The notes: generated from the sequence alone by a model not told the origin. 64,000 nucleotides of DNA from an uncultured Alphaproteobacteria bacterium (GCA_964647725.1 CAZYJI010000004.1:52633-116632); one strand, 5' to 3'. Shown: positions 85-63,201, counted from the stretch's first letter. A program made the numbers and translations.

Positions 85-897
85 TTATGCCTTATCAGCG
101 GCGATTAAATCCCGTTTTCCTGCCGCTTTTTCCTGGGCAATGCAGATCCAGACCGATATTTCATACAGAAAATACATAGGTATCGCCAACAATAGCTGGC
201 TGATCACATCCGGCGGGGTGACGATGGCGGCAATGATCAGGATGATGACAATGGCATACCGGCGACTTTCGGCCAGGGTTTGCGCCGTCACCAAACCGAC
301 CTTGTTCATCAGCACCAATAATACCGGCAATTCAAAACAAAACCCAAACGCCATAATAAGGCCGGTGACGATGGATAAATATTCATTCACCTTGGCTTCG
401 AGTTGAATCGGTAAACCTTCGGGGCCGCCCATGGTTTCGTAACTAAGGAAGAATTTCCATGCCATCGGAAATACGACGTAATAAGCCATGGCAGCGCCCA
501 TCAAAAACAGAATCGGCGTTGCGATTAAAAACGGCATAAAGGCGCGTTTTTCGTTTTTATACAGACCCGGCGCGACAAACATCCATATTTGGGTCAGTAA
601 TAACGGCAAGCAGATGAATAAGGCCATCCACATCGCCAATTTCAATTGGGTAAAAAACGCCTCAGCAATGCCGGTGAAAATCATTCGCGGGTTGGTATGG
701 CCCTTGGCAGCCATCGCATCGATCAAGGGTCTGGCCAGGAAATCGTAAACATGCCCGGCGAAATGAAAACTGATGCCAAAGGCGATCACAAATCCGACCG
801 CGACGTAAAACAGCCGCGTGCGCAATTCTATGAAATGCTGCATAAATGGCATTTCCATAAAATCACTTTCGGCTTTGCTGTCTTTTTTCTCAGTCAT
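85..897 (-). CDS. tatC: Sec-independent protein translocase TatC
   Basis: 270 aa polytopic membrane protein. It has the typical TatC N-terminus (MPFMQHFIELRTRL) and follows tatA and tatB. Confidence 0.93.
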   Translation of the reverse strand: MTEKKDSKAESDFMEMPFMQHFIELRTRLFYVAVGFVIAFGISFHFAGHVYDFLARPLIDAMAAKGHTNPRMIFTGIAEAFFTQLKLAMWMALFICLPLLLTQIWMFVAPGLYKNEKRAFMPFLIATPILFLMGAAMAYYVVFPMAWKFFLSYETMGGPEGLPIQLEAKVNEYLSIVTGLIMAFGFCFELPVLLVLMNKVGLVTAQTLAESRRYAIVIILIIAAIVTPPDVISQLLLAIPMYFLYEISVWICIAQEKAAGKRDLIAADKA

Positions 898-24116: not shown

Positions 24117-24418
24117 TGGAAGGCGCAGTATATCTTAAATTTGTGGCATCGCTGGTATTCGTGCTGGCAATCCTGGGTCTGTGCGCGTTTTTATTGCGCA
24201 AATATGGCGGCATTGGCCCGGCGATGATGCCGCAACATAAACGGCGTATGAAAGTTTTGGAAATCATGCCGCTGGACCATAAAAAGAAACTGTTTTTAAT
24301 TCGTCACGACGATACCGAACATTTGATTCTAACCGGCCAGGGGCATGATTGTTTGATTTCCAGCCGCGCCGCCACATCCGACAATGCAAATTCCCAAGAC
24401 ATCAGGAAAACCGCATGA
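24116..24418 (+). CDS. fliO: flagellar biosynthesis protein FliO
   Basis: Single N-terminal TM helix followed by KVLEIMPLDHKKKLFLIRHDDTEHLI. It lies immediately upstream of fliP and overlaps it. Confidence 0.75.
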   Translation: MEGAVYLKFVASLVFVLAILGLCAFLLRKYGGIGPAMMPQHKRRMKVLEIMPLDHKKKLFLIRHDDTEHLILTGQGHDCLISSRAATSDNANSQDIRKTA

Positions 24419-25164
24419 AAATAAAACATATCCTTATCCTATTAGGTTTCGCGATTGCCAGTTTTGTGCTCGCATCTCCCGCGTTGGCGCAGACACTAAA
24501 TTTGGATATGGGTGAAAGCGGCGGTTCGGCCACCAGCCGTATTTTACAATTCCTGGCGCTGTTAAGCGTTCTAAGTTTGGCGCCGTCGATTTTGGTAATG
24601 GTGACGTCCTTTACCCGGATTGTTGTGGTTTTATCCCTACTCCGCAGCGCGCTGGGCGTGCAACAAACGCCGCCCAATTCCGTTTTAATCAGCTTGGCGT
24701 TATTTCTGACTTTATTCGTTATGATGCCGGTGTTCGAAGAATCTTACAAAGTCGGCATCGAACCGTTGATCGCCGAGCAAATCAACGAAATGGAAGCATT
24801 CAATCGCGGCATCGAACCATTCAAAGTATTCATGCTGGAACATACCCGCGATAAGGATTTGGGATTGTTCCGCGAAATGGCCAAGGTCGATACCGCCGTG
24901 GAAGTCGACAAAACGCCGTTACACGCCGTTATTCCCGCCTTTATGATCAGCGAATTGCGCCGCGCGTTCGAAATCGGCTTTTTAATATTCCTGCCGTTTT
25001 TGATTATCGATATGGTCGTCGCATCGATCCTAATGTCGATGGGTATGATGATGTTGCCCCCGGCCATGATCGCCCTGCCCTTTAAATTGATTTTCTTTGT
25101 GCTGGTAGACGGCTGGTACCTGATCGCCGGAAGCTTGGTGCAGAGTTACGCAACGGGCGGGTAA
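24415..25164 (+). CDS. fliP: flagellar export gate protein FliP
   Basis: Signal peptide, then LLSVLSLAPSILVMVTSFTRIVVVLSLLRSALG, which is canonical FliP. I chose the start at the ATG overlapping the fliO stop. The track ORF starts at 24349. Confidence 0.95.
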   Translation: MKIKHILILLGFAIASFVLASPALAQTLNLDMGESGGSATSRILQFLALLSVLSLAPSILVMVTSFTRIVVVLSLLRSALGVQQTPPNSVLISLALFLTLFVMMPVFEESYKVGIEPLIAEQINEMEAFNRGIEPFKVFMLEHTRDKDLGLFREMAKVDTAVEVDKTPLHAVIPAFMISELRRAFEIGFLIFLPFLIIDMVVASILMSMGMMMLPPAMIALPFKLIFFVLVDGWYLIAGSLVQSYATGG

Positions 25165-25574: not shown

Positions 25575-25594
25575 GTAAAGAATTAGAAATCTAA
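25235..25594 (+). CDS. GIY-YIG nuclease family protein
   Basis: YSVYIATNDKSTVMYIGVTNNLERRMSEHK carries the GIY...YIG motifs. The C-terminal tail is encoded by the right inverted-repeat arm. Confidence 0.9.
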   Translation: MKTYSVYIATNDKSTVMYIGVTNNLERRMSEHKAGLIEGFTKKYNIRKLVYYEDYYEIKTAIDREKTLKGWIRAKKNALVETENPKWQDLSKDWYGREAALDARDPSRSAQDDSKELEI

Positions 25595-28500
25595 TTTATC
25601 GCAAACGTGCCCTTCTTGATCTTCTCGCGATAGAAGCTCATGAAGTTTTCATATTTGACCGCTTCATCCAGCTTGCCGGTCAATTCAGCCAGGCTGAGCG
25701 GTTCGTTAGCATCGACATTGGTAATAATCTCGAACGCTTCGAATTGCGGCATGGTTTTCATGCGCGCCCAATAGCTGCGTTTAATATGTTTCAATACATC
25801 GTCATCGCCATCCAGCGCCGCTGCAATCGCCAGATTCAAAACCCACTGTGCGGTTTGCGGCGGTAATTTGGCCGGTTCCGCCGATGGCGGTTCGCCGGAT
25901 TCTTGTTGTTGCTTGGCTTCGTCATCCAGCGATTCGACAATCAAGCGGTTCAATTTTTGCGCCACCATAGCCCAATTGCGCATCCGCCAATATATGTCGG
26001 CGCGCAACATATCGGACTCCCGGCCTTTTTCAGCAGCAATGAAATCCAAGGCTTCTTGCGGTTTATTTTGATCGAATAACGCGCGCGCCTTTAACAGGCG
26101 CCGTTCGGTAGCCAAATCCGCTGGAATTTGCGGCGCATTGCTGAGATCCAGCGCCTTGACGGCTTCTTCGGGCTTGCGGTCGGCAATATATACAAATGCC
26201 AGTTTCGCGCCAACGCGGGCTTTATCCTCGCCTTGCAAGCGGTAACTGATTTGGTGCGACAATAAATCCGCCGCGCGTTCCAGCAAATCGACTGCAATCA
26301 AACGATCCACCAGACGTTGAATAATTTTATCGCCATCTGGTCCGGTTGGCGTTAAATCGCGGAATTCATCAAACAGTCCCAGCGCGGTCAATGGCGGCAT
26401 ATTATCGGCCGCGCCATCCATAAATAATTTTTTGAATGTATCGGTCATCATATCGGTCAATTCAACCACATAGGGTTGATCGGCGTAATTGGTCACCGCC
26501 CGGCGCAGCGTGAATAATCCTTCGCGATAAAGCCCGTCTTGGATCTGCATCCGGCCAAGCATCTGCAATACATTGAATTCGAATTTATCGCCGCGCCAGG
26601 CGAAACGCAGCCGTTCCAGGCGCGCGATAATGTCTTCGCGTTTTAATCCGCCTGTTGCCTCGCCATGCTTGATTAACGCAAACTCCGCGCGCGGGCGAGC
26701 ATAAGGTTCCTCGCTTTTCAATACCGATTCCCACAATTTTACCGCGTCTTCCGGCTTGCTTTCGCGCATGGCGATTTCGCCGCGCCAATAATTTAGAATA
26801 TCGTGCATTTTGACCAATTCGGCGTCTTGGTTCAATCGGTCGATAATGGTTTTCGCCTGGTCGCTATGATTATTATTAATTTCCGATTCGATTTGCGCAA
26901 GGCCGATCATTTTTTTGGCATTGGCCGGCGGCGCATCGTTGGGTTGATCGGACATGGTGAAATATTGATCCGATGCCGCCCAATCATTTTGTTGCACCGC
27001 CAATACCGCACGCCAAGTGGCGATATCGGGCTGTTCATCGAAACGCTGATCCCGCAAATCCTCCGTCGCTTGCTTGTAATTTTGTTCGATAATATAAGCC
27101 GAGCCGCGAATCGCCAAAAATTCCGCGCCGCGGGCCAGCGTTTCATCCCACTTCGCGTTGACATTCATTACCGCAATCGCTTCGGCCATCCAGCCATGGG
27201 AATAATATAATTTGGCCAGTTCCATGCGCTTATCGATGCGTTCATCGGTTTTAAGCGATCCGATTTGCGCCAGCAAATCCTGCTCTTTATCAAAAAAGTT
27301 TTTGCGCGGATCGCCGCGCCATTCAGCGTATTTTAAAATCGCCGGATTGCTTGGCGGCCCTTCGTTGATCCATGGGCCATAAACATCTTTTTGATTGGTT
27401 TTATTCGGATCGGTTACTTCGACCGGTTTATTTTGTGCCAGCAATAATACGCCGGATTTCTTGACTACCATGAATCCGTCGAAATCCGGGCGGATTTCAA
27501 TGCCGGCTATTTTCGGGGTGATGGCAATACCTTGTGACGACGGTAAAAGGGTGAATTCGCTAAAATCACGCTCTCCGTTTACGCCGCGTCCAGGCACGTT
27601 GACCGTTGCAACAATAATCTGATCGCCAACCTCGGGATCGTTCAATTGCATCACGCGGCCGGAACTTGGCACCGTTAAATACAACCCAAACTGCCGGTCG
27701 GCAAATTCCTTGTATTCGGCGGGAATGGTAACTGCTGGACGGATTTTTTGCGATTTATAATCGATTTGCCAGGATCTGCGATCTGGCGTTGCCTGCGCGG
27801 TTGGCTCCAACCCCATCACGGTATGAATACGCAATGCGGTGGATGTCGGGCCTTTGATAATCTCCATGCCACCGATAATGTTCAAAACCGATTGCGTTTC
27901 CGGATTCATGATCATATTTGCCGGGCGGTCAAATACCATCCAGGCATAACCGGCGCGTTTGAAAATCGCCATGCCCACGGATTTCGGCCAAATGGCTTTG
28001 AAACTTAGAACGGTGTTGGTCTTGCTGACCACCAATTCGACATTTTGTACTTCCAGCGGATCATCCGCCGCTTCTTCGACGAGTGGCGGGGCAATTTGTT
28101 CAATTGGCGTTGGTTGTTCGACGACAGGATTCAAATCCGTTGTCGGCATCGCAAATTTTGCTTCTTCTTTTGGATCAACCGGTATTTCCGGTTTTGGCGG
28201 CTCGGCCGGTTTGGCTTCGACTGGCGACGTATCTGCCGGCGGAGCAGCTGTTACTTCCGGTTTTTTTACCGGCGCGGTTGGCGGCGGCATGGCGAAATCC
28301 AACACAACCGCCCTTTCTTTGGCATAATGCCGGATGGAAATTGGGTCCCGGCATTCATATTGAATTTTGGTGATGGCGTCCAAAACAATCGGCGCGGCCA
28401 TTTCGCAATCTGGAATTTTTATCTTGCGCAATTCTTGGTCCGGAATAGGAACGATGGCGTCGAATTCAACCGTAGCCTGGCGGCCTTGTTCATTCACGCG

Positions 28501-28995
28501 GTAAGGTATTTTTTCCGGCCATTCGAAAACCATGCGGTAAAAATCCGGGTGACGGGCGGAGCGGATTCTAACCGCGCCGGTGGACAATACCGGTTTTGGC
28601 GGTTTGGCCAATGCCTTGCCGTCCCCGGCCGCAGCGGCAGCGGATTTTGGCAATAACGTAACGGTTATGGTTTTGCCGATTTTTTCATCCATGATCGCAA
28701 CCGGATGCACAAGACCAACAATTAAGGTCTTTTTATCGGCGCTCAGGATTGCTTCGCTGACCAAGGATCGCAAAGCGGGTTTCAATTTGCGGGGATCTAT
28801 ATTTTGCGGAGCGTCGAAACGCACGATCAAGGATCCCCCGGCCAATTTCGCCGTGTAGGTTGTATCCGCATCTAAATCGAATTGAATGGTGGCGGCGCCG
28901 TCATGCATCGAAGCAGACACATTCGCCGCAAGCGCCAAGGACGGCGCCAGCAAAATTCCGATCAAACAAATTAGCAATCCAAGAAAACGGTGCAT
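25591..28995 (-). CDS. large secreted protein: AMIN-like N-terminal repeats, Pro-rich linker, C-terminal TPR-like helical repeats
   Basis: A signal peptide MHRFLGLLICLIGILLAPSLALA follows the ATG at 28995. The track starts 2 codons earlier at a TTG. The protein is 1134 aa and sits inside the flagellar gene cluster. Confidence 0.8.
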   Translation of the reverse strand: MHRFLGLLICLIGILLAPSLALAANVSASMHDGAATIQFDLDADTTYTAKLAGGSLIVRFDAPQNIDPRKLKPALRSLVSEAILSADKKTLIVGLVHPVAIMDEKIGKTITVTLLPKSAAAAAGDGKALAKPPKPVLSTGAVRIRSARHPDFYRMVFEWPEKIPYRVNEQGRQATVEFDAIVPIPDQELRKIKIPDCEMAAPIVLDAITKIQYECRDPISIRHYAKERAVVLDFAMPPPTAPVKKPEVTAAPPADTSPVEAKPAEPPKPEIPVDPKEEAKFAMPTTDLNPVVEQPTPIEQIAPPLVEEAADDPLEVQNVELVVSKTNTVLSFKAIWPKSVGMAIFKRAGYAWMVFDRPANMIMNPETQSVLNIIGGMEIIKGPTSTALRIHTVMGLEPTAQATPDRRSWQIDYKSQKIRPAVTIPAEYKEFADRQFGLYLTVPSSGRVMQLNDPEVGDQIIVATVNVPGRGVNGERDFSEFTLLPSSQGIAITPKIAGIEIRPDFDGFMVVKKSGVLLLAQNKPVEVTDPNKTNQKDVYGPWINEGPPSNPAILKYAEWRGDPRKNFFDKEQDLLAQIGSLKTDERIDKRMELAKLYYSHGWMAEAIAVMNVNAKWDETLARGAEFLAIRGSAYIIEQNYKQATEDLRDQRFDEQPDIATWRAVLAVQQNDWAASDQYFTMSDQPNDAPPANAKKMIGLAQIESEINNNHSDQAKTIIDRLNQDAELVKMHDILNYWRGEIAMRESKPEDAVKLWESVLKSEEPYARPRAEFALIKHGEATGGLKREDIIARLERLRFAWRGDKFEFNVLQMLGRMQIQDGLYREGLFTLRRAVTNYADQPYVVELTDMMTDTFKKLFMDGAADNMPPLTALGLFDEFRDLTPTGPDGDKIIQRLVDRLIAVDLLERAADLLSHQISYRLQGEDKARVGAKLAFVYIADRKPEEAVKALDLSNAPQIPADLATERRLLKARALFDQNKPQEALDFIAAEKGRESDMLRADIYWRMRNWAMVAQKLNRLIVESLDDEAKQQQESGEPPSAEPAKLPPQTAQWVLNLAIAAALDGDDDVLKHIKRSYWARMKTMPQFEAFEIITNVDANEPLSLAELTGKLDEAVKYENFMSFYREKIKKGTFAIN

Positions 28996-29020
28996 GAACA
29001 AGCCAATATTAGGGTAAATT

Positions 29021-35865: not shown

Positions 35866-35898
35866 ATGGCCGGATCAAACCGGCCATTTTTCTTTTTT
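35866..35898 (+). terminator. rho-independent terminator after flgH
   Basis: Stem atggccgg-atcaaa-ccggccat followed by tttttctttttt. Confidence 0.7.
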
Positions 35899-36078: not shown

Positions 36079-37080
36079 ATGTTAATCGGAATCACAGAAC
36101 ATCAAGCGGAAGAAGCATTGGTAGAATTGATTAAAGAAATCAATACCAACCATACTAGCGCGTGGAGCATTGTGAATATCCGCACCAGCTATTTAAACAA
36201 TCTGCCGCACGATCAATTCGTCCTGACTATAAAACCCGCCATGCACAGCGCCATTGATGCTAAAATATTTTTCATGGAAAATCAGGACATATATCTGGCC
36301 TGGTGTGGAATGCCCAAACGCATTTTTGAAAAACTACGCGGCATTATTATTCCGCATATGTTGAAATCCGAATTTCAAGAAACCACCGATGATGTAATAA
36401 CATATTTCGATGCCCAATTGATGGCAGATGAATTGTGCCTGTTTCTTAGAAAATTTTTGAAAGACGACCTCGACTTGCCTTTAATAAAAATTGCCGATGA
36501 TCCCGACAAATCCATGACATCATCTGCCAAGCTAGTCCCCCTAGACAGTCCATCCACACCCAAAACCCAACTTCGAGAAGCCGCCAAGCCTATGACCAGT
36601 AACGCTCCGCCTCTTACATCTGCGTCGCTTCGCTATAATGAAAATCAAATAGAAAATTTCCTAAGCACGAAACTACAAAGGGTTGGCAGACAGCAATTGC
36701 GCGTTTTAATTGTCGAAGACCAACTTTTTTCCAAACAGCTGCTATACGGCATTTTGGGATATAAGTTTCATGTCGATACCGCCGAAACAATTGCCGAGGC
36801 GTGGAGGATTTATCTGGATGTTGTGCCGGACATTGCCTTTATTGATATTGAACTCCCCGACGGCAACGGCCATGAACTGGCAAAAAGAATAATAGAGCTG
36901 GACAATGCCGCGTATTTGGTAATGGTCACGGCACACCATTCCGCAGATGACGTGGAAATAGCCAGGAAGAATAACGTCAAGGGGTTTGTTGTTAAACCGT
37001 TCAGCAAACAGAAAATACTTTCTTATGTGGAGCGTTATACTTCGTCTGACAAAAATCCCCGCATACACGCAAGAGGATAA
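36079..37080 (+). CDS. response regulator with C-terminal receiver and an uncharacterised N-terminal domain of about 200 aa
   Basis: The receiver domain shows RVLIVEDQ, IAFIDIELPDGNG and VVKPF. I recognise no family for the N-terminal 200 aa. Confidence 0.85.
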   Translation: MLIGITEHQAEEALVELIKEINTNHTSAWSIVNIRTSYLNNLPHDQFVLTIKPAMHSAIDAKIFFMENQDIYLAWCGMPKRIFEKLRGIIIPHMLKSEFQETTDDVITYFDAQLMADELCLFLRKFLKDDLDLPLIKIADDPDKSMTSSAKLVPLDSPSTPKTQLREAAKPMTSNAPPLTSASLRYNENQIENFLSTKLQRVGRQQLRVLIVEDQLFSKQLLYGILGYKFHVDTAETIAEAWRIYLDVVPDIAFIDIELPDGNGHELAKRIIELDNAAYLVMVTAHHSADDVEIARKNNVKGFVVKPFSKQKILSYVERYTSSDKNPRIHARG

Positions 37081-37084
37081 TTCC

Positions 37085-37429
37085 ATGGGCGAAGTTCTCA
37101 ATTTATCAAATTTACGCGAAATGACCGGCGGCGATCCTTTTCTAGAAAAAGAACTATTTACCGTTTTTATCAGTTCTTCGGAAGAATGTTTACAAAGCCT
37201 ACAACAGCATACCGGTCCCAATGATACAGAACATTGGAAACGTCATGCTCACGCTTGGAAGGGAATAAGTTTAAACCTTGGTGCGGAAAACTTGGCCCAG
37301 TTATGTAAAAGCGCGCAAGACAATTACATGGCCGAACAAGAAATTAAACAGCGAATAACCGAAACCCTGCAACAAGAATACAGCAAAGTTAAGTCTGCCT
37401 TGAATATCGTTATGGATACCGCTTCATAA
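37085..37429 (+). CDS. Hpt (histidine phosphotransfer) domain protein
   Basis: 114 aa with HAHAWKGISLNLGAENL, which fits HxxKG...GA. It starts 4 nt after the RR stop. The track ORF begins earlier at 36986. Confidence 0.8.
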   Translation: MGEVLNLSNLREMTGGDPFLEKELFTVFISSSEECLQSLQQHTGPNDTEHWKRHAHAWKGISLNLGAENLAQLCKSAQDNYMAEQEIKQRITETLQQEYSKVKSALNIVMDTAS

Positions 37430-37461
37430 ATCATTATCAATACTTATATTTCCGAGGGAAA

Positions 37462-38439
37462 ATGCGTATAGGTTTTTATTTCATTTTCATCCTGATGTTA
37501 GGATCGCTGTTTTCTTACTCATCCACTGCCCTGGCCACCGATCAAAAATACAATCACGAGCCTATTCAACCCATTGTGGGCATCAGCAGTTTAGATCCCA
37601 AACGCGTTGAATTGGGTAAAAAGCTTTTTCACGATGTGCGGTTATCAAAAAATGAAAAACTATCTTGCGCTTCTTGTCATGAAATCCACACCAGCGGAAC
37701 TATAAATACCGCTTATCCTGTCGCCGGTGTCAGTGGCAAGGCCATATCGATCAATGTCCCCACTGTCTGGGGTAGCGCCCTGAATTTCACGCAATTTTGG
37801 GATGGTCGGGCCGCAACTTTAGAAGAACAAATCAGCGGGCCAATTTTAAACCCGGACGAAATGGGAAATTCCTGGCCCGAAATTATCGCCAAACTTAAAA
37901 TGATACCGGAATACAAACAAGCCTTTCTTGAAATATATAAATCGCCGCCAACGGAAAAGAACATCAAAGATGCTATTGCGACGTATGAACGGTTTTTAAT
38001 TCCAGTCAACGCGCCATTCGATAAATACTTGCTCGGCGAGGAATCAGCGATTTCCGCCGATGCCAAGGCGGGCTACCGTTTATTTAAAGATTTAGGATGC
38101 TCGTCATGCCATCAAGGCGCCAATGTTGGCGGCAATATGTTCCAAAAATTCGGAATTGTTGGTGATTACTTTATGGACCGCGGCCATCTTACTTCTGGAG
38201 ATTATGGCCGTTTTAACGTGACTAAAAAAGAAGAAGACCGTTATGTATTCAAAGTACCATCCTTGCGCAATGTCGCCAAAACCGCGCCGTATTTTCATGA
38301 CGGATCGGCCGCGACGCTGGAAGAAGCGGTTGACGTCATGGCCAAATATCAATTGGGGCGCACCTTGTCCCAAGACGAGCGCAGAAAATTGGTAGAATTT
38401 CTTAAAAGCTTAACTGGCACGCTGCCTGTACTGGAATGA
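37462..38439 (+). CDS. di-haem cytochrome c peroxidase (BCCP/MauG family), periplasmic
   Basis: Signal peptide, two CxxCH motifs (CASCH and CSSCH), FWDGRA, and [17 protein letters not shown]. Confidence 0.92.
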
Positions 38440-40991
38440 ACATGAAAAACCCTATGCGCAAGCATTTTATTTTTATTTTCGTGCTGGCGATCGCTGTGTG
38501 CTTTTTCTTTTATCAATCCTATTGGTCTTCCCGGAATACCTATGTGCAGATCCTTAGTGAATTGCGTTCATTGCGCGGTCTTAACGCCGAATTAAATGAA
38601 AACATCCTATTGGCTAGAAATAATTTACTGAGTAACTATGACGGCTTAGTCCGGCTTTCGCAATCGATGAACGAAACAACTCTTACCATACAAAACAAAA
38701 TCGAAGAAACGATACAGACGCCAAATGCGATATTCTTCCCATCTCCCTACAATTCAAAACAATATATTGAATTGGGCCGACAAACCAAAGCGGCCATTGA
38801 AAAATATATTTTATTCAACGGCACCCGCAGCGCAGTTTTAGAAGAATTCAAAGCAAAGAATGCAATCTTAAGAAATTCGGCGCATTATTTGCCTACAATC
38901 CATGTGGAACTGGCCGCCGCCTTGTATGACAAGCGCCATGACGATGTTGCCAACCATATTGACGAATTATATCAATATACATTGCTATATTTGAGCGATA
39001 CGAATGATCAAACAAAATCCGAAATTGAATCTCTGCTTGATAAAATTACTCTGCTGCAGCTCCAATTAAGCAGCGCGGATAAAAATAAACTGCATTACTT
39101 GGTCGCTCATACAAAAATTATTGTCGATGCATTAAGTCAGGTTTCGTCTTTAACACAATCGCTATTATCTCCGGAAAATAAGACCATATTAAACGACTTA
39201 AATACGTTAATATACCAAAGATTGGAAATCTCCCAGAACGCCGAAATATTTTTTAATGCGGGACTATTTCTACTCTCCCTAATTCTAATTTGTTATATCC
39301 TAGCAATTTTGACAAAACTGTACCGCACCGTAAACAAATTGGGCTCAACCAATTCTTTGTTGGTTGTTGCTAACAATGCCAAATCTGAATTCCTTGCCAA
39401 TATGAGCCATGAAATCAGGACGCCGATGAATGCGGTTATTGGCATGACTTCATTATTGCTGGACAGCAACCTCAACGATGAACAACGGCGATGGGCGGAA
39501 ATTGTTGGACGTTCCGGCGATTCGTTATTAACGCTGATTAACGATATTATGGATTTCACCAAAATCGAGGCCGGAAAATTCACCCTAGAATTGATCCCTT
39601 TCAGCCTATCTAAAATTATCGAAGAATGTATGGATTTGCTGGCGGTTACAGCAAAGGAAAAAAATCTGGAATTGTTGATGTATGCCGCCAATGAAATACC
39701 GGAAAATTTAATCGGCGATCCAGCGCGCGTGCGGCAAATATTGTTAAATTTATTGGGCAACGCCCTGAAATTTACTTTAGAAGGTTATGTTTTACTGGAA
39801 ATCCAAACCAAATTCTTAGACACCAAAAAAATCGCCATTTCATTCATCATCAAGGACACCGGCATCGGCATCGCGCCCGATAAAATCGAACATATATTTA
39901 CCATGTTCAGTCAGGCGGAAGCATCTACTACGCGACGTTTTGGCGGCAGTGGCCTTGGCCTTACAATTTGCAAAAGATTAACCGAAATGATGGGCGGCAA
40001 CACTGAAGTTAGCAGCCAGTTGGGCAAAGGATCGATATTCTCATTTACTCTGCCTTTCGATATTGCGGATGAAAGCACCGGCACCAAGGAGCCAAGCGGA
40101 TTTACACTGGAGAAAAAAGACATTTCCCAAGCCCGATTGTTGATTGTCGACGATTATCCAGTCAGCGCGGATATTTTATCTGCCTATTGCCGCAGCTGGA
40201 ATATTCAACACAAAGCTGTCAACAGCTCGGCTGCGGCCTATCAAGAATTATTGGCCATGGCGGAAAAAGGCGAACCATATCACATCGCCCTTCTCGATTA
40301 CCGCATGCCGGATCAAGACGGAAAAACATTGGGCCAGCGGATAAAATCCTCGCCGGCCATTCGCGAGACGGCGCTAGTTTTGTTAACATCCCACTTATAT
40401 GCTGGCAGCCAAGCAGAGTTAACGGCCATCGGCTTTTCCGGGATGCTGACAAAACCGTATTATCCAACGGAAATTCAAAAAACCATCATTCTCATTTGGG
40501 ATGCCTTGACCCGCAAACAACCGGTAAATTTCATCACTAGGCATTTTATTAAAGGCGGTTTCCAGGACCCACTATCCGAAACCCGTAAACAGAAATTACT
40601 GCAATTTCAAAATCGCAGAATTTTGGTGGTAGAAGATATGGCCATCAACCAAATGCTGATGACCAGCGTTCTGGCTAAATTCGGCTGTGTGACCGATATT
40701 GCGCATAATGGCGCTGAAGCCGTCGATATGTTCCAACAAAAAGATTATGATTTGGTTTTTATGGATTTCCACATGCCGGAAATGGATGGATTCGATGCCA
40801 CCCGCTTGATCCGCCAGCATGAGCAAGATGCAAAATTAAAACGCCACCCGATTATCGCTTTGACCGCGGATGCGTTGGAAGGAGACCGGGACAGCTCCCT
40901 GGCAGCCGGCATGGATGATTATGTCAGCAAACCCGTGCAAATGGCCACGATCGAAAAAACATTGAAAAAACACCTGCATCCCAATGCGTAA
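38436..40991 (+). CDS. hybrid sensor histidine kinase (periplasmic helical sensor, HisKA, HATPase, two receiver domains)
   Basis: Two TM helices flank a periplasmic region of about 250 aa. The H-box is [13 protein letters not shown] and the G-boxes are DTGIGI and GGSGLGL. Receiver domains begin at LLIVDDY and ILVVEDM. The start overlaps the peroxidase stop (ATGA). Confidence 0.93.
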
Positions 40992-58438: not shown

Positions 58439-58532
58439 GGAGACGTGGCCGAGTGGCTGAAGGCGGCGGTTTGCTAAACCGTTATACGGTTGTAAAGCCG
58501 TATCGAAGGTTCGAATCCTTTCGTCTCCGCCA
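58439..58532 (+). tRNA. tRNA-Ser (anticodon GCT), CCA encoded
   Basis: Acceptor stem ggagacg/cgtctcc, anticodon arm gcggt-ttGCTaa-accgt, a long variable arm, T-loop ttcgaat, and a 3' gcca. Confidence 0.9.
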
Positions 58533-58763
58533 TTGAGTTCCGCACAAGTTGGCGGGTTCGCGTATTCGGCGGAATTGATCCGAGATTTCAAACGCTTGTG
58601 GCGAGGTTTTATTCTCCGCTACCCACACAAGCCTACATTCTCCAGGACATTTAAAAAATTATAGGCCATTTTCTCCGACCATTTCCCGCCAGTTCGCCTT
58701 TTGGTAATATGGCGAGAGAAAAATAGCGAAAGGCGAAGTGGGTTTGGTGCGAGACTCTTTGCA

Positions 58764-60485
58764 CTAAGATTCGGCCCCGAGTAGGACTTTCTTAAAAGCA
58801 ATCCCACATTTAAATTTTCTATCTTCTGTTAAGTATTTATGGCTATTCATTAGCTCGTACTGCGACATGAATGGCAAATCTTTAATTCCAAAGTTTTCGG
58901 CCTCATGAAGCACACAAAATATGATTTTGTAATCCCCCTCTAAAACATCAATGCTTTTCTCAGGAATTATGGATTTAAAAATTGCTTTATTTTTACCCGC
59001 ATTGACTTCATCGGTATTTGTTTCAATCCAATCTGTCATTTCTTTACGACAAACCGCATCCGTTGAGAACGCTCTTGAATAAAATCGTCCTTGAGTAAAT
59101 AAATGACTAATAGATGATGCGCCGGATGAATATTTTTTGACGTGTATTAAATGCTTATCTGCAGATAATAAGTCGCATACCTCATATTTTTTTTCTGAAG
59201 CAATTGTTATCTTTGCCTGATCGAACAAAAACAAAGATCCAGAACTCTGACACGCGGCAGCATTGTATATTTCCTCCCTATTTTGATTCCTTTCAGAATC
59301 AAATATTCTTATATTGCTAGGAAGATAATCCACACTCATATTTAAGTTGTTGCTTTGAAAATATCTTTTAACTTTTTCTTGCAAATCATTTGAAACTTCT
59401 CGCCACTGGCCATTTGACAATATGTATATTTTCTCATTAAGAGTGACTTCTGCCACCACGCATTGATATGCATCCCATTTTTCATAGGTTTTTTCTTGTT
59501 CGTGGTCATAAGTGTATATAGGCCATGACTTAATTGTAGATATTTTAAGATTAGCAATGCGCCGCCTTGGGGCGGCAATCAAATCATGTATATTTAAATC
59601 TTCAAATAAGGGGGGTGTTACTTGCCCTTCTTTCTTTTTATAACAATATGAAATATCGCTAAACTCTACAAACTCAGGAGGCGCAAGGTGGATCTTAGAA
59701 AAATTTTTATTGGATATTGTTTTGCATAGGATCGTATCTAGTTGATCTGTAATTTCTGGATCAGTTTCATGTCTCAATATATCATATACCTTAAAATCAG
59801 TCTGCTTATAGTCTTCGGAATGATACCTTTCCTCCATCTTCTTACATAGCTCTACTAATTTTGCCCAATCAAGAGGAGCATTTTCCGCAAACTTAAGAGA
59901 AATGCTGTCTTTGCCTTTAAATGAATCAATTATATTTTTGTAATCTTTATGCACACACCCAGAAATGGTGCGTAATAATTCGGATTCATTATTGATACCG
60001 AAAACTTTTAAATTAGCGCCCGTACTTGCCTGGCGCTCCGTTTGCTGACTAATGGATTCGTGTACAGTGGTCTGAATTTTTCTTAGATCATCTATATCAC
60101 AAATATTCATACCCACCTTGATACCAAAGTCTCTGGTAATATGATTCTTATCAAGGTAGCTGTCCCCATGTTGGCCAAAAGTAGCTACATAGCAAATATA
60201 TGTATTTTCTACCTTAATTTTTATAGCCAATATTGCCCTAGGAAACTTATTGAAGGCGCTATATCTATATTTAGTCTCAGAAAAAGCTGAATTAAGAAAG
60301 GCAATCCAAGGCACCTGACTTTCTGTTTTTTCTGCTCCTCCACCTACCGCATATTTAATGTATGCTTCGTACCCAGCGGCTTCATTATTAATATGATCAT
60401 AATTAGATAAATCACCTTTTAAAAATGCACCAAAATCTCTACCAACTTTTATTTTATATAGGTTAACCTTTTTCAATTCTGTCAT
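58764..60485 (-). CDS. DUF6119/TIGR04141-like protein with a C-terminal PD-(D/E)xK-like motif (last gene of the island operon)
   Basis: 573-aa AT-rich ORF. The N-terminus VNLYKIK and the C-terminal block YEVCDLLSADKHLIHVKKYSSGASSISHLFTQG match my recollection of the sporadically distributed TIGR04141 family. This was not verified by a search. Confidence 0.55.
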   Translation of the reverse strand: MTELKKVNLYKIKVGRDFGAFLKGDLSNYDHINNEAAGYEAYIKYAVGGGAEKTESQVPWIAFLNSAFSETKYRYSAFNKFPRAILAIKIKVENTYICYVATFGQHGDSYLDKNHITRDFGIKVGMNICDIDDLRKIQTTVHESISQQTERQASTGANLKVFGINNESELLRTISGCVHKDYKNIIDSFKGKDSISLKFAENAPLDWAKLVELCKKMEERYHSEDYKQTDFKVYDILRHETDPEITDQLDTILCKTISNKNFSKIHLAPPEFVEFSDISYCYKKKEGQVTPPLFEDLNIHDLIAAPRRRIANLKISTIKSWPIYTYDHEQEKTYEKWDAYQCVVAEVTLNEKIYILSNGQWREVSNDLQEKVKRYFQSNNLNMSVDYLPSNIRIFDSERNQNREEIYNAAACQSSGSLFLFDQAKITIASEKKYEVCDLLSADKHLIHVKKYSSGASSISHLFTQGRFYSRAFSTDAVCRKEMTDWIETNTDEVNAGKNKAIFKSIIPEKSIDVLEGDYKIIFCVLHEAENFGIKDLPFMSQYELMNSHKYLTEDRKFKCGIAFKKVLLGAES

Positions 60486-60515
60486 TTAATAGCTCAAAAT
60501 AAAAACTAAGTAGAT

Positions 60516-60704
60516 TTAAGAAACAACATTGTCGGCGATCATTTCTCTTAGACTTTCTATACTTAAGCGTGTTCCTAAGACCTGCAGTAACTCGCTCAGC
60601 TCTTTCACTTCCTTGAGACGCGGGTCTGGAACTTTGGGCTTTAGCTTCAGATAACTATCCAAACAAAGAATCAGCTCATCTCTAATCCAAGGGGGATTAC
60701 GCAT
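60516..60704 (-). CDS. 62-aa ORF resembling the N-terminal module found on some HNH-type nucleases (stand-alone or truncated)
   Basis: The ATG lies 1 nt after the stop of the 831-aa gene (TAGaATG). The sequence is NPPWIRDELILCLDSYLKLKP...ELSELLQVLG. Confidence 0.45.
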   Translation of the reverse strand: MRNPPWIRDELILCLDSYLKLKPKVPDPRLKEVKELSELLQVLGTRLSIESLREMIADNVVS

Positions 60705-60705
60705 T

Positions 60706-63201
60706 CTATTCTACATCCGCCGAATTTAATGCCGTTGAAGTGTCAACGATTTTTGGTAAATTTTCCGCCAGTGCCAATACTACATATGCGGCCCCACGGG
60801 CCGCCATTTTCCGAAAATCATCGGCAAACTCGGCAATATTGTTGACATTATTTTGATTGGCAGCATCCGAATGCTTCTTAAAAGATCGTTCAAAACCTAG
60901 CATTAATATCCTCATGCCAAGAATATATTTTTCTGTAACAACGTCTTTAGCCACCTTTCCACGTTGCTGCATTCTATATTTCAAATGATAAACATTATCA
61001 TAATTAATTTTATATATGACTTCATTATCTCCTAGATCTTGGATATAACCACCCTCATTCTCATCAAAACCCTCGGGCCATTGCTCGACTTTATATCCCG
61101 GTATTTCTTCACCAGTTCTAGACAAGAGAACACATAAAGGAAGCCCATGCGTGGGAGCCTCTGCTCCTTTTCCTTCCCCTTGTTTGCCATCTCCCGACTT
61201 AGGCTTAGCATTTTCGCGCTTCTTTGGATCTTGAATTTCGGCTTCTTCGACGATCCTAATTTTTAGAACTTCGGATTCAATCGGAGAGGAAATAGAATCG
61301 TCTTGCAACCCCATTTTGAATGTTAACTCATTACCTACTTCTATTTTGTCTTTGGCAGGCTCAAGATAAATAATTAAGCGGCCATTATATAAATGACTTC
61401 TTATTCCGAATTTATCTCTTACACTGTCAGGAATAAGCAGATGGCCGCGATTATCGGGTCGATTCAAATACCCATTCTCGGCGTCGGTTCTAGCAGAAAT
61501 AGGGCGCGCCTTATTTATCGGAATATCAATATATCCATCCACATATTTCTCTTCTAAACGTAGAAATGTGGGGCTGAACTTACCCTCAAAATGGCCTGAA
61601 CCGCTCTCCGCACCATTTCTTCCGCCTGCCGCCGGTAAGCGTATCTGAGGATCTCTATTAGAAAGCAATCCCGCAAGATTTGGATCAGCATTTACGAGTT
61701 TTTGGAATAGCGCATTGCTCTCCGAATCTTTTGCCAATTCAAATTCTTGTTGGGCAATTTTATTCTGCAGTTCTTTTAATGCTTCGGATTCTCTAATTAC
61801 TTTTGTGATTTCATTTTTATATTTTTCACCTAATGTCGTGTTACTGACGTGCTCTCTATCACCCTTCCAAATATCATTATGTGCTCCAAATTTTAATTGG
61901 CTAGCGTCAACAATAATTACAACGCGATCCTTTAGAGCAGGCAAACCACAAGATTGAGATAAATATCCGCGTGATTGCTTAAATTGGACCTGGCCGTTCA
62001 CGGCATGAAAAACTCGAGTGTTAGACTGCCTAAGCCAGCTAGGAATGTCATGCTTCAAAGGAATCGCACTGATCGTTATTTCGCCCAGTTTTGAGTCTTT
62101 GATTTCTCCTACATGAATCTTATCTTCCGATGCTGCAGCCGCATCATCTTCTAGATCTTCCAATCCTTCTTCTTTATGCGACCTACGGAGTAAGAATTCC
62201 ATTCCATAAAAGGGGCGCGGATCTATACCCTCCGCGCGGTCACCACCGCGCTTCTTCGCCGCCTCTAGTTTTTCTTTTGTAGTAGGAAGCTGTCTAAAAT
62301 CTAAAAGCCTAAAAGGCAGGATAGTTTCCACCAAATTTTCATTTAATGCTTCACGTGAGCCTCTAAAGCTCAAGAACTTCGAATCTACTTTGTAATCATA
62401 TAGTTTAATAACGGTACCAGCACCTAGCAGAACTTGCTCATATGTTTTATTGGTCATCGTTTTGAACGGAAATAATTTATCCATTTCAAATGAAGGTATC
62501 TCTTTATTCGGAATAAAATATTCGGCTACGGGCATATTATCTCCCGCATCTGGCCGGCGGCGGACCAAAGTCCACCCCCACATTCCTTTTCCATCAAAAC
62601 GTCGAGAAATAATTAATTTATACCACTTTTCTCCGCAATAACGCAGGACACCAGATGATCCCATGTTGTATTTGCCCTGTACAAAAGGCACCCCTCTCTT
62701 ATTTCCTTTACTTAGGGATAAAAAAGTATTTTCAAAATCTTTTGGATTTTGCCCTTCACCATTATCAACAAAAGTATAACAGGGTAGCCCCTCTTTTTTA
62801 TTTTTTGCACCGGTTATACCGATCACTAGATTTTTTATTGCAAAAGTACGAAGCCAGTCATCCTTTGGATCAAGATTAACCAACTTCCCTCCACGAAGAT
62901 TTTTAACCAGCTTGTCCACCGCCTCATACATCGTTTTTGGAGCATCAGATCCTTTAGGATCAATTTTTGCTTGATATGCATGCTTTAACAAAACCGCATC
63001 AACCATATTTGTCATAAGTTCGGTAAGAGCTTTGCCACCATCCGAAGCTTGATTTGAAGTTACGTTAAAATTTGTTTCTCTGCGATCTAACGGCTCCCAA
63101 TTTTTGGAGTCGCGCATTTCTTTGTTCGCAGACAAAATTTTATCTACTTCTTCTTCCGACTCAGCATACAAAAGGGAAAGGCACAGTGATTTGCTGTCCA
63201 T
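60706..63201 (-). CDS. GHKL (Bergerat-fold, HATPase_c_3 / MORC-like) ATPase, 831 aa, with a large uncharacterised C-terminal region
   Basis: N-box ELMTNMVDA (ExxxNxxD), G1 box FVDNGEG, G2 box GKYNMGSSG. GGAG lies 8 nt upstream of the ATG. Confidence 0.8.
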   Translation of the reverse strand: MDSKSLCLSLLYAESEEEVDKILSANKEMRDSKNWEPLDRRETNFNVTSNQASDGGKALTELMTNMVDAVLLKHAYQAKIDPKGSDAPKTMYEAVDKLVKNLRGGKLVNLDPKDDWLRTFAIKNLVIGITGAKNKKEGLPCYTFVDNGEGQNPKDFENTFLSLSKGNKRGVPFVQGKYNMGSSGVLRYCGEKWYKLIISRRFDGKGMWGWTLVRRRPDAGDNMPVAEYFIPNKEIPSFEMDKLFPFKTMTNKTYEQVLLGAGTVIKLYDYKVDSKFLSFRGSREALNENLVETILPFRLLDFRQLPTTKEKLEAAKKRGGDRAEGIDPRPFYGMEFLLRRSHKEEGLEDLEDDAAAASEDKIHVGEIKDSKLGEITISAIPLKHDIPSWLRQSNTRVFHAVNGQVQFKQSRGYLSQSCGLPALKDRVVIIVDASQLKFGAHNDIWKGDREHVSNTTLGEKYKNEITKVIRESEALKELQNKIAQQEFELAKDSESNALFQKLVNADPNLAGLLSNRDPQIRLPAAGGRNGAESGSGHFEGKFSPTFLRLEEKYVDGYIDIPINKARPISARTDAENGYLNRPDNRGHLLIPDSVRDKFGIRSHLYNGRLIIYLEPAKDKIEVGNELTFKMGLQDDSISSPIESEVLKIRIVEEAEIQDPKKRENAKPKSGDGKQGEGKGAEAPTHGLPLCVLLSRTGEEIPGYKVEQWPEGFDENEGGYIQDLGDNEVIYKINYDNVYHLKYRMQQRGKVAKDVVTEKYILGMRILMLGFERSFKKHSDAANQNNVNNIAEFADDFRKMAARGAAYVVLALAENLPKIVDTSTALNSADVE

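Follow-up and report, generated by a model that had tools for sequence, protein, structure and literature searches.

A di-haem cytochrome c peroxidase paired with a DAHL-domain hybrid kinase: a candidate haem-based co-sensor in an alphaproteobacterial phosphorelay operon

What is a gene for a haem peroxidase doing in the middle of a phosphorelay operon? The question is raised by a block of four co-directional open reading frames (ORFs), positions 36079-40991, plus strand, in a 64,000-nucleotide stretch of DNA from an uncultured Alphaproteobacteria bacterium (GCA_964647725.1 CAZYJI010000004.1:52633-116632), a stretch which at its full length is referred to here as ‘the window’. As based on ORF calls and Pfam matches, the block encodes, in order, a response regulator (RR), a histidine phosphotransfer protein (Hpt), a di-haem cytochrome c peroxidase (CCP), and a hybrid sensor histidine kinase, the periplasmic part of which is a DAHL domain (PF19443). 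An initial annotation of this DNA had supposed that the haem protein is a sensing module which reports to the kinase. The answer developed here is that the CCP and the DAHL domain very probably work together as an input unit and, a step further that we consider likely, that within this unit the CCP serves as a haem-based co-sensor of the kinase. The window operon is one member of a large and so far undescribed CCP-DAHL family.

A peroxidase-sensor pair and its changing outputs

The genes of the block, along with the one overlap between them, are these:

36079-37080, plus strand: RR, 333 amino acids (ORF call, Pfam REC)
37085-37429, plus strand: Hpt, 114 amino acids as counted from an internal ATG (PF01627)
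37462-38439, plus strand: CCP, 325 amino acids (PF03150 plus cytochrome c domain)
38436-40991, plus strand: hybrid sensor histidine kinase, 851 amino acids (DAHL, HisKA, HATPase_c, two REC domains)
38436-38439, plus strand: ATGA overlap of CCP stop and kinase start, the TGA sharing bases with the ATG (sequence)

The RR and Hpt genes thus are separated by 4 nt and those for Hpt and the CCP by 32 nt, with the CCP and kinase genes overlapping at the ATGA, so that both ORF calls and sequence agree with the gene order and spacing initially described. A second possible kinase start is the ATG at 38442, and no good Shine-Dalgarno sequence is found upstream of the kinase ATG. An overlap at an ATGA, lacking a good upstream Shine-Dalgarno sequence, is consistent with termination-reinitiation coupling between the two genes.

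This pairing is far from particular to the window. With the window CCP as query, and with one genome used per GTDB species, 39 loci were obtained (41-59% identity), 38 of which could be evaluated, and in 34 of these 38 the next gene downstream, on the same strand, encodes a DAHL protein. The taxa involved are Elusimicrobiota, Nitrospira, Alpha-, Beta-, Gamma-, and Zetaproteobacteria, and Cyanobacteria, along with Bdellovibrionota, Myxococcales, Campylobacterales, and Entotheonella. Going in the opposite direction, i.e., from sensor to peroxidase, metagenomes were searched with the DAHL motif FK[SA]xNA[VLI]L[RK]N, which returned more than 600 stretches, at least 450 of them confirmed, from which the best 80, meaning the most window-like, were kept. 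Among the 74 of these with at least 900 bp of upstream DNA, a CCP gene is located directly upstream, on the same strand, in 73. The commonest spacing between the two genes is the same 4-nt stop/start overlap, as seen in 49 of 72 loci. The conservation of CCP-kinase adjacency or overlap on which the initial annotation had made its pairing model depend is in this manner strongly positive, and the linkage is tight, two-way, and cross-phylum.

Individual cases serve to illustrate the range. The same overlap of CCP and DAHL-kinase genes is present, as independently called, in the cultured Marinobacterium rhizophilum and Porticoccus sp. W117. One relative (L001) possesses the same four genes in the same flagellar position, its proteins being 71-78% identical to those of the window (78% for the CCP). 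A CCP that is 62% identical is found in an unrelated, non-flagellar setting, there with a DAHL-HisKA-HATPase kinase downstream and an 8-nt overlap. On plasmids of Rhizobium etli 8C-3 and Agrobacterium fabrum Kin001 the pair is annotated as ‘cytochrome c peroxidase’ plus ‘ATP-binding protein’, followed by a response regulator. Altogether the CCP-DAHL module is known from at least 10 phyla, and its DAHL sequences make up no fewer than 446 clusters at 50% identity, an exhaustive phmmer search having matched 446 representatives. Pairwise identities among the CCPs furthermore correlate with those among their DAHL partners (Mantel r = 0.73, a value reached by 0 of 999 permutations), with a mean pairwise identity of 47% for the CCP and 25% for DAHL. 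Both plasmid copies, counted apart from the rhizobial subgroup described below, adjoin a divergent gene with an FHA domain and another for a hybrid-cluster oxidoreductase.

What changes is the output. DAHL proteins encoded 3' of CCPs carry HisKA/HATPase kinases, hybrid kinases, and PAS-containing kinases, as well as GGDEF-EAL outputs (12 DAHL proteins in two Pfam scans), SpoIIE together with an anti-sigma-type ATPase (2), a class III cyclase (1), and, in cyanobacteria, IS200-like Y1_Tnp domains (5). Different outputs are found even among close CCP relatives. A CCP-DAHL pair that stays the same while its transmitters are exchanged marks, as read from these domain architectures, a sensory input unit, and would not be expected of an enzyme which is merely regulated by the pathway. 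Since transducers that are non-transcriptional keep the CCP as well, the CCP likewise would not be merely a regulatory target. Of the proposal that the CCP is a fixed partner of the kinase's periplasmic domain, it is the pairing of the genes that stands, as based on adjacency, overlap, and constancy of the pair with changing outputs.

The Y1_Tnp-ended proteins are an oddity in their own right. In these the transposase domain (PF01797) replaces the kinase (L007:4748-6262, L014:7109-8566, L044:4920-6434, L085:1061-2539, and L101:2308-3777), and such DAHL membrane proteins are found in Calothrix and in three like-built metagenomic contigs, making for an odd, sensor-to-HUH-nuclease-fold architecture.

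The haem protein and the DAHL domain

If the pair is a sensory unit, then what does each protein bring to it? The window CCP scores 178.9 bits against PF03150 (CCP_MauG; cut-off 25.6) and 40.7 bits against PF00034 (cut-off 21.3), and its residues 1-25 are a Sec-type signal peptide with cleavage at ..STALA/TDQ. Its best match among solved structures is 9qdt (E of 4e-83), which covers residues 26-320 and which, titled ‘Probable cytochrome c peroxidase’, we take to be E. coli YhjA. Further matches are Shewanella CcpA 3o5c (2e-78), N. europaea 1iqc (2e-72), and P. aeruginosa 1eb7 (3e-66), with 45-50% identity to the characterised peroxidases 9qdt, 3o5c, and 1iqc. The peroxidatic haem motif is C69-x-x-C72-H73 (C51/C54/H55 in 1eb7) and the electron-transfer haem motif is C213-x-x-C216-H217 (C197/C200/H201 in 1eb7), with Met293 (M275) as ligand to the electron-transfer haem. 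Kept also are the inter-haem W113 and calcium-site N98 (W94 and N79 in 1eb7) along with the catalytic Q123 and E133 (Gln104 and Glu114, P. aeruginosa numbering). At the position where the P. aeruginosa CCP has its distal His71 there is V90, a Val being found there in 9qdt as well. In classical bacterial CCPs (BCCPs) this His closes the peroxidatic haem, giving rise to a bis-His resting state and to reductive activation.

The initial label had been ‘BCCP/MauG-type’, of which the first half is retained (PF03150, with best matches that are true peroxidases) and the second is to be dropped on both model scores and the Met ligand. MauG or MbnH identity was considered and rejected: scores are 163.5 bits for TIGR03791 (cut-off 443.85) and 170.5 for TIGR04039 (cut-off 362.85), and the ligand is Met, not the Tyr of MauG. 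By residues and by matches, that is, the haem protein is a BCCP of a YhjA-like kind, not a MauG. A DAHL-linked CCP from an Elusimicrobiota locus (L004:5539-6888) is longer, at 449 amino acids, and displays a weak, extra N-terminal match to the first-CXXCH region of the query; this CCP may be a YhjA-like, tri-haem form that is still coupled to a DAHL kinase.

The DAHL-linked CCPs are recognizable as a subfamily, particularly by their lack of the distal His, which is present in 0 of 107 of them versus 4 of 4 canonical solved BCCPs. Found in its place are Ile, Val, Leu, Met, Phe, Tyr, Ala, or Gly. The exceptions among the 38, four loci in which no DAHL gene adjoins the CCP, have a hydrophobic distal residue in no case: His in Thermocrinis (L036), Thr in L008, and Asn or Asp in two Bacteroidetes loci. 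His is present also in L041, a locus at a contig edge and not evaluable. In some relatives there is a His 3-5 residues further downstream, which may be an alternative ligand. Additional clade positions, going from P. aeruginosa to window, are N52 to A70, W73 to G92, P119 to W138, N202 to Q218, and Q209 to N225, with N225 100% conserved in the clade. In alignments the window pair displays the DAHL invariants listed below along with absence of the distal His, CA-x-CH, W138, Q218, and N225.

Residues involved in catalysis are less strictly held. Both CXXCH motifs, the Trp, and the calcium-site Asn are invariant in all 107 DAHL-linked CCPs, and the Met ligand is present in 106; catalytic Glu, by comparison, has given way in 33 of the 107 to a residue that is not acidic, in most cases Leu, Ile, or Val, and catalytic Gln is replaced in 19. 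As the haem sites are invariant while Glu and Gln drift, the trait conserved across the subfamily is, in terms of residues, haem binding plus haem-to-haem coupling, not peroxide turnover. The 120 database relatives closest to the window CCP nonetheless retain Gln in 120 and Glu in 119, and peroxide chemistry therefore probably is still used in the window branch.

A rhizobial subgroup (L021, L025-L027, L029, L031, L032, L034, L038, and L040) is distinct in that its CCPs carry Tyr, or in L031 Gln, where the distal His would be, and have Leu or Ile in place of the catalytic Glu. Some of these loci have an RR gene upstream of the CCP, and the NF010411 ‘VirA-like sensor kinase’ model may be built on kinases of this subgroup.

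The partner of the CCP, the kinase, is laid out as follows (all on the plus strand):

38463-38525, plus strand: first transmembrane (TM) helix, TM1, kinase residues 10-30 (hydrophobic segment)
38529-39248, plus strand: periplasmic DAHL domain, PF19443, residues 32-271 (Pfam)
39249-39323, plus strand: second TM helix, TM2, residues 272-296 (hydrophobic segment)
Residues 315-380, plus strand: HisKA with phospho-acceptor H325 (77.6 bits)
Residues 427-542, plus strand: HATPase_c (98.7 bits)
Residues about 567-690, plus strand: REC1 with D621 (REC total of 136.1 bits over two domains)
Residues 729-843, plus strand: REC2 with D777 (included in the same REC total)

H325, D621, and D777 all being present, the kinase is the H-D-D hybrid that it was initially taken to be. 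Its DAHL domain (92.6 bits versus a cut-off of 38) is flanked by two hydrophobic helices and, like the CCP with its signal peptide, is periplasmic. Within this periplasmic part, residues 32-271, a residue check found neither Cys nor CXXCH, as had been anticipated, and for lack of Cys the segment cannot bind haem c. Also in agreement with what had been expected, secondary structure is predicted to be all-helical, the tertiary model made from a single sequence by AlphaFold2 (AF2) being unusable (predicted local distance difference test score, pLDDT, of 44.5; predicted template modelling score, pTM, of 0.22). A profile search against PDB sequences turned up no solved structure for DAHL, only coiled-coil noise (best E of 0.0035). 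Invariant across the family, in window kinase numbering, are Y68, D69, E136, F138, K139, N142, N147, S148, and H225.

NF010411 matches the DAHL region (E of 1e-24, below cut-off), though this is a likeness in name only, with no homology to VirA claimed. TorS identity was tried and rejected, TIGR02956 scoring 395 against a cut-off of 676.5 and NF008543 scoring 263.7 against 982, with matches confined to the kinase core. The C-terminal part of the kinase matches the NahK/ErcS model NF041832 at 204 bits, below that model's cut-off of 400. An insertion of about 20 residues in the DAHL domain (kinase residues 97-117; within nt 38436-39350) is found in the window kinase and in the close relative L001 and is missing from all other members of the DAHL alignment.

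The signal, its alternatives, and comparison with known systems

How might such a unit operate? In the scheme that we favour, the peroxidatic haem of the CCP would react with H2O2 or, as is less likely here, bind another small ligand, and the electron-transfer haem would convey how reduced or oxidised the donor pool in the periplasm is. A change in haem state and conformation brought about in this way would then be read, we infer, by the haem-free DAHL domain through direct contact, and the state so read would set autophosphorylation at H325, whether up or down. From H325 phosphate could pass to D621 or D777, on to H56 of Hpt, and from there to D256 of the RR, with the RR exerting its output, whatever its cellular target might be, through protein contacts. 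In the window the signal peptide, the two TM helices, H325, D621, D777, Hpt H56, and RR D256 are all intact. As to the signal itself, we put the chances that it is H2O2 in the window operon at about even.

The same two-protein sensor might respond to a signal other than H2O2, i.e., to NO, O2, CO, sulfide, or the redox state of a donor or quinol pool. NO, O2, CO, or sulfide would be bound by the open peroxidatic haem, whereas in the redox version of this idea the His/Met haem would be reporting on periplasmic cytochrome c or the quinol pool, with H-NOX and NosP co-sensors as the model. A hydrophobic distal pocket combined with strictly kept haem binding is in keeping with such a signal, catalytic Glu having been lost in about 30% of members and distal His in all, and with Glu lost to that extent the signal may not be peroxide in every member. 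Retention of Gln in 120 of 120 and of Glu in 119 of 120 closest relatives is nevertheless hard to explain without selected peroxide chemistry, and the His/Met haem, inter-haem Trp, and calcium site are kept just as in working peroxidases. The surroundings of the genes point instead toward a non-peroxide signal: the same RR-Hpt cassette is found elsewhere with MHYT hybrid kinases, and the rhizobial plasmid module adjoins a hybrid-cluster oxidoreductase gene. On balance a non-H2O2 signal is favoured for the Glu-less branches, is less likely in the window operon, and overall we regard it as a quite unlikely alternative.

Some observations weigh against a co-sensor role altogether. Any pair of genes that is inherited as one operon should be linked and diverge in a correlated manner. 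The 73 of 74 obtained in the sensor-to-peroxidase direction was obtained with a motif that had been built from CCP-linked DAHL domains, and is silent on DAHL domains lacking that motif. The DAHL domain of Tlp10, a Campylobacter jejuni chemoreceptor, is reported, as cited in PMC9796306, to bind small molecules, i.e., metabolites, directly, and DAHL therefore may be able to do without a protein partner. The window CCP, lastly, keeps every catalytic residue (Q123, E133), and so may simply be an active enzyme.

The latter two points are also what would be expected were the CCP a plain detoxifying or respiratory enzyme, present as operon cargo or as a pathway target, with DAHL sensing a small-molecule ligand of its own; the full catalytic set and 45-50% identity to characterised peroxidases fit as well. 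Mutants of C. jejuni in docA, a CCP gene, are not peroxide-sensitive, however, nor are Cj0358 mutants (PMC3156733). The 4-nt overlap, too, is kept across at least 10 phyla despite changing outputs, and those outputs include c-di-GMP enzymes, a PP2C-type phosphatase, a cyclase, and a chemoreceptor, none of which is a means of direct transcription control. An enzyme that is kept for its enzymology also should not be losing its catalytic Glu in about 30% of the family. We consider the plain-enzyme explanation very improbable. MauG and MbnH, members of the same CCP_MauG superfamily, do modify partner proteins encoded next to them, and the DAHL domain does possess invariant Tyr and His (e.g., Y68, H225) which a CCP might oxidise or cross-link using H2O2, whether as signal or as maturation, but M293 (Met in 106 of 107) in place of the Tyr of MauG, NCBIfam scores of 163/170 bits against cut-offs of 444/363, and best matches that are true peroxidases make this the least probable of the three.

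To return to the CCP as co-sensor, the closest parallel in print is from C. jejuni, in which docA (cj0020c), encoding a CCP, is immediately upstream of docB (cj0019c), that is, of the gene for the Tlp10 chemoreceptor (PMC3156733, PMC13462783). As in the window, the CCP gene is upstream of, overlaps, and is translationally coupled to that for a DAHL transducer (PMC3156733; PMC13462783; PMC9796306). The two differ in output, which with Tlp10 is a chemoreceptor feeding CheA and in the window is a hybrid-kinase phosphorelay. Mutants in docA and in docB (tlp10) are both defective in chick colonisation (PMC3156733). A functional link between DocA and Tlp10 has been put forward in one speculative sentence, found in the discussion of a 2026 paper, and beyond that one docA/tlp10 remark the literature covered, which did not include subscription journals, yielded nothing on CCP-DAHL linkage.

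Among peroxidases as such, YhjA, a tri-haem quinol peroxidase here represented by 9qdt, agrees with the window CCP in its catalytic and haem residues and in the loop that has Val for the distal His. To our knowledge it has no DAHL neighbour. It differs further in being anchored in the membrane and in possessing one more haem domain, at its N-terminus, where the window CCP is soluble, di-haem, and equipped with a signal peptide, and PMC10301912 describes YhjA as a quinol-driven enzyme. Classical BCCPs (1eb7, 3o5c, 1iqc, and 1nml from Marinobacter) share with the window CCP PF03150, two CXXCH, the Met, the Trp, the calcium site, the Gln, and the Glu, but are unlike it in that the window CCP has Val for distal His71, the clade substitutions, and a gene that is tied to a sensor.

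Kinases fed by accessory proteins are also well known. With TorT-TorS, LuxP-LuxQ, and ChvE-VirA the signal reaches the periplasmic domain of a (hybrid) kinase by way of a periplasmic partner, the gene for which adjoins that of the kinase, and a His-Asp-His-Asp relay follows. The partners in those systems are solute-binding, however, whereas the window partner is a redox enzyme with two haems. In HbpS-SenS-SenR of Streptomyces an extracytoplasmic, haem-binding accessory protein modulates a membrane kinase under oxidative or redox stress (PMC4991794, PMC3754957), but that system is from a Gram-positive host, its proteins and folds are unrelated to those of the window, HbpS is an octamer which degrades haem, and no phosphorelay is involved. 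H-NOX/HahK and NosP/NahK resemble the window in that a separate haem protein, co-cistronic with a hybrid kinase, signals through Hpt; H-NOX and NosP are cytoplasmic, b-type NO sensors, however, in contrast to a window CCP that is periplasmic, c-type, and di-haem, and which keeps its peroxidase residues. Sensor kinases fed by accessory proteins, in short, are already established, and what is not established is a di-haem, c-type peroxidase in that role.

Peroxide sensing by Gram-negative bacteria is known from the cytoplasm, as with OxyR and PerR, and we know of no dedicated periplasmic receptor for peroxide or redox state that has been established. A peroxidase acting as input subunit of many transducers would fill that gap and would give DAHL a function. 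Coupling of a CCP to a membrane sensor in more than 100 unrelated bacteria suggests such co-sensing over simple detoxification. More tentatively still, and at somewhat under even odds in our estimation, DAHL may be a domain dedicated to docking a periplasmic di-haem co-sensor and to transducing its signal, not primarily a small-molecule receptor, with the CCP-DAHL pair then representing a widespread class of haem-based periplasmic sensor for peroxide or some other redox or gas signal. Were that so, CCP-DAHL would feed two-component systems, c-di-GMP turnover, cyclases, partner-switching phosphatases, and chemotaxis. Glu-less branches would be pure sensors derived from an enzyme, with loss of Glu in about 30% of members but retention of haem sites offering a case of an enzyme evolving into a sensor. 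It also would be explained why DocA of C. jejuni matters for colonisation and not for peroxide resistance. Cultured carriers of the module include C. jejuni, Marinobacterium rhizophilum, Porticoccus sp. W117, Pseudomonas zanjanensis, and, on plasmids, Rhizobium and Agrobacterium.

The output cassette and its genomic setting

What the input unit feeds in the window is the RR-Hpt pair, which together with the kinase makes for a complete multistep phosphorelay set, i.e., HisKA, HATPase_c, two REC domains, the His of a stand-alone Hpt, and, at the end of the chain, a receiver Asp. Its features, along with the hairpin ahead of the block, are:

36079-36462, plus strand: RR N-terminal alpha/beta domain, residues 1-128, with invariant W75 and G77 (alignment, AF2)
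Residues 129 to about 180, plus strand: RR linker, predicted to be disordered (pLDDT <50)
36703-37029, plus strand: RR receiver domain, residues 209-317 (Pfam REC, 65.2 bits)
36844-36846, plus strand: RR phospho-acceptor D256, with T284 and K306 also present
37250-37252, plus strand: phosphotransfer His56 of Hpt, in an HAWKG motif (Hpt, 46.4 bits)
35866-35897, plus strand: intrinsic-terminator-like hairpin and T-run, after flgH (hairpin scan, sequence)

The AF2 model of the RR, made with 28 homologues, has a mean pLDDT of 82, with about 90 predicted in both domains. A fold search, which is dominated by the C-terminal domain, identifies that domain as a standard receiver. For the N-terminal domain there was no match in Pfam, NCBIfam, or PDB sequences, the best being a non-significant, gelsolin-like one (E of 0.4), and a degenerate GGDEF was ruled out (hhalign probability of 0.8%). 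As no DNA-binding domain was recognised in the RR, it probably acts by protein-protein contact.

Homologues of the RR are from Alphaproteobacteria, always have an Hpt gene as the next one downstream, and are found in non-flagellar loci with MHYT-domain or other hybrid kinases. An MHYT-domain hybrid kinase adjoins the RR-Hpt pair in four of five other loci (L123, L124, L125, L126, and L127). The RR-Hpt pair is, to judge from these settings, a mobile cassette, and as it is elsewhere paired with other hybrid kinases the window operon is, in its gene content, a fusion of two cassettes: RR-Hpt for output and CCP-DAHL for input. A peroxidase ‘embedded’ in the manner initially remarked upon is not unusual for the family, since, of 83 related loci, 18 have an RR gene as the one directly preceding that for the CCP. 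In L126 there is in addition a second CCP_MauG gene (L126:15821-16876), about 7 kb from the RR-Hpt cassette and adjoining a 136-amino-acid gene and an MHYT hybrid kinase. Sensors that lack DAHL may, to judge from this arrangement, have genes for di-haem peroxidases associated with them too.

Does location in a flagellar region then imply redox control of motility, as was hinted at initially? This is not supported. The flagellar position is shared only with the close relative L001, and both the CCP-DAHL pair and the RR-Hpt pair are found in non-flagellar contexts elsewhere. Motility as the output we judge to be unlikely at best.

Upstream of the block are flgF, flgG, flgA, and flgH (Pfam/NCBIfam), and downstream are dksA and fliX, on the minus strand, followed by flgI. 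The hairpin at 35866-35897 sets the block apart from the flgFGAH operon: its stem (35866-35887) is of 8 bp, six of them G-C pairs, and is followed by TTTTCTTTTT, such that the terminator already noted ahead of the block is indeed there, although the minus strand as well reads as a hairpin over the same span. The block was described also as visibly AT-rich, and this AT-richness is real but modest: its G+C content is 0.432 versus 0.482 and 0.498 in the 5-kb flanks, ranking 19th lowest among 237 windows of equal size.

Elsewhere in the window, a 1136-amino-acid ORF (25591-29001, minus strand), which has no Pfam family at E <= 1e-5, is located among the flagellar genes, with fliP (24349-25164) on one side and fliL/fliM on the other. 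The block contains no Rfam families, the only Rfam match in the whole of the window being a tRNA-Ser at 58439-58529, with the tRNA-Ser(GCT) itself placed at 58439-58532. That tRNA is followed by two low-GC, minus-strand genes, one encoding a DUF6119 protein (58764-60485, G+C of 0.35) and the other an 831-amino-acid ORF without a Pfam match (60706-63201, G+C of 0.41). The region which these together make up, 58439-63201, has a G+C content lower than that of any other part of the window, and has the look of a genomic island that was integrated at the tRNA.

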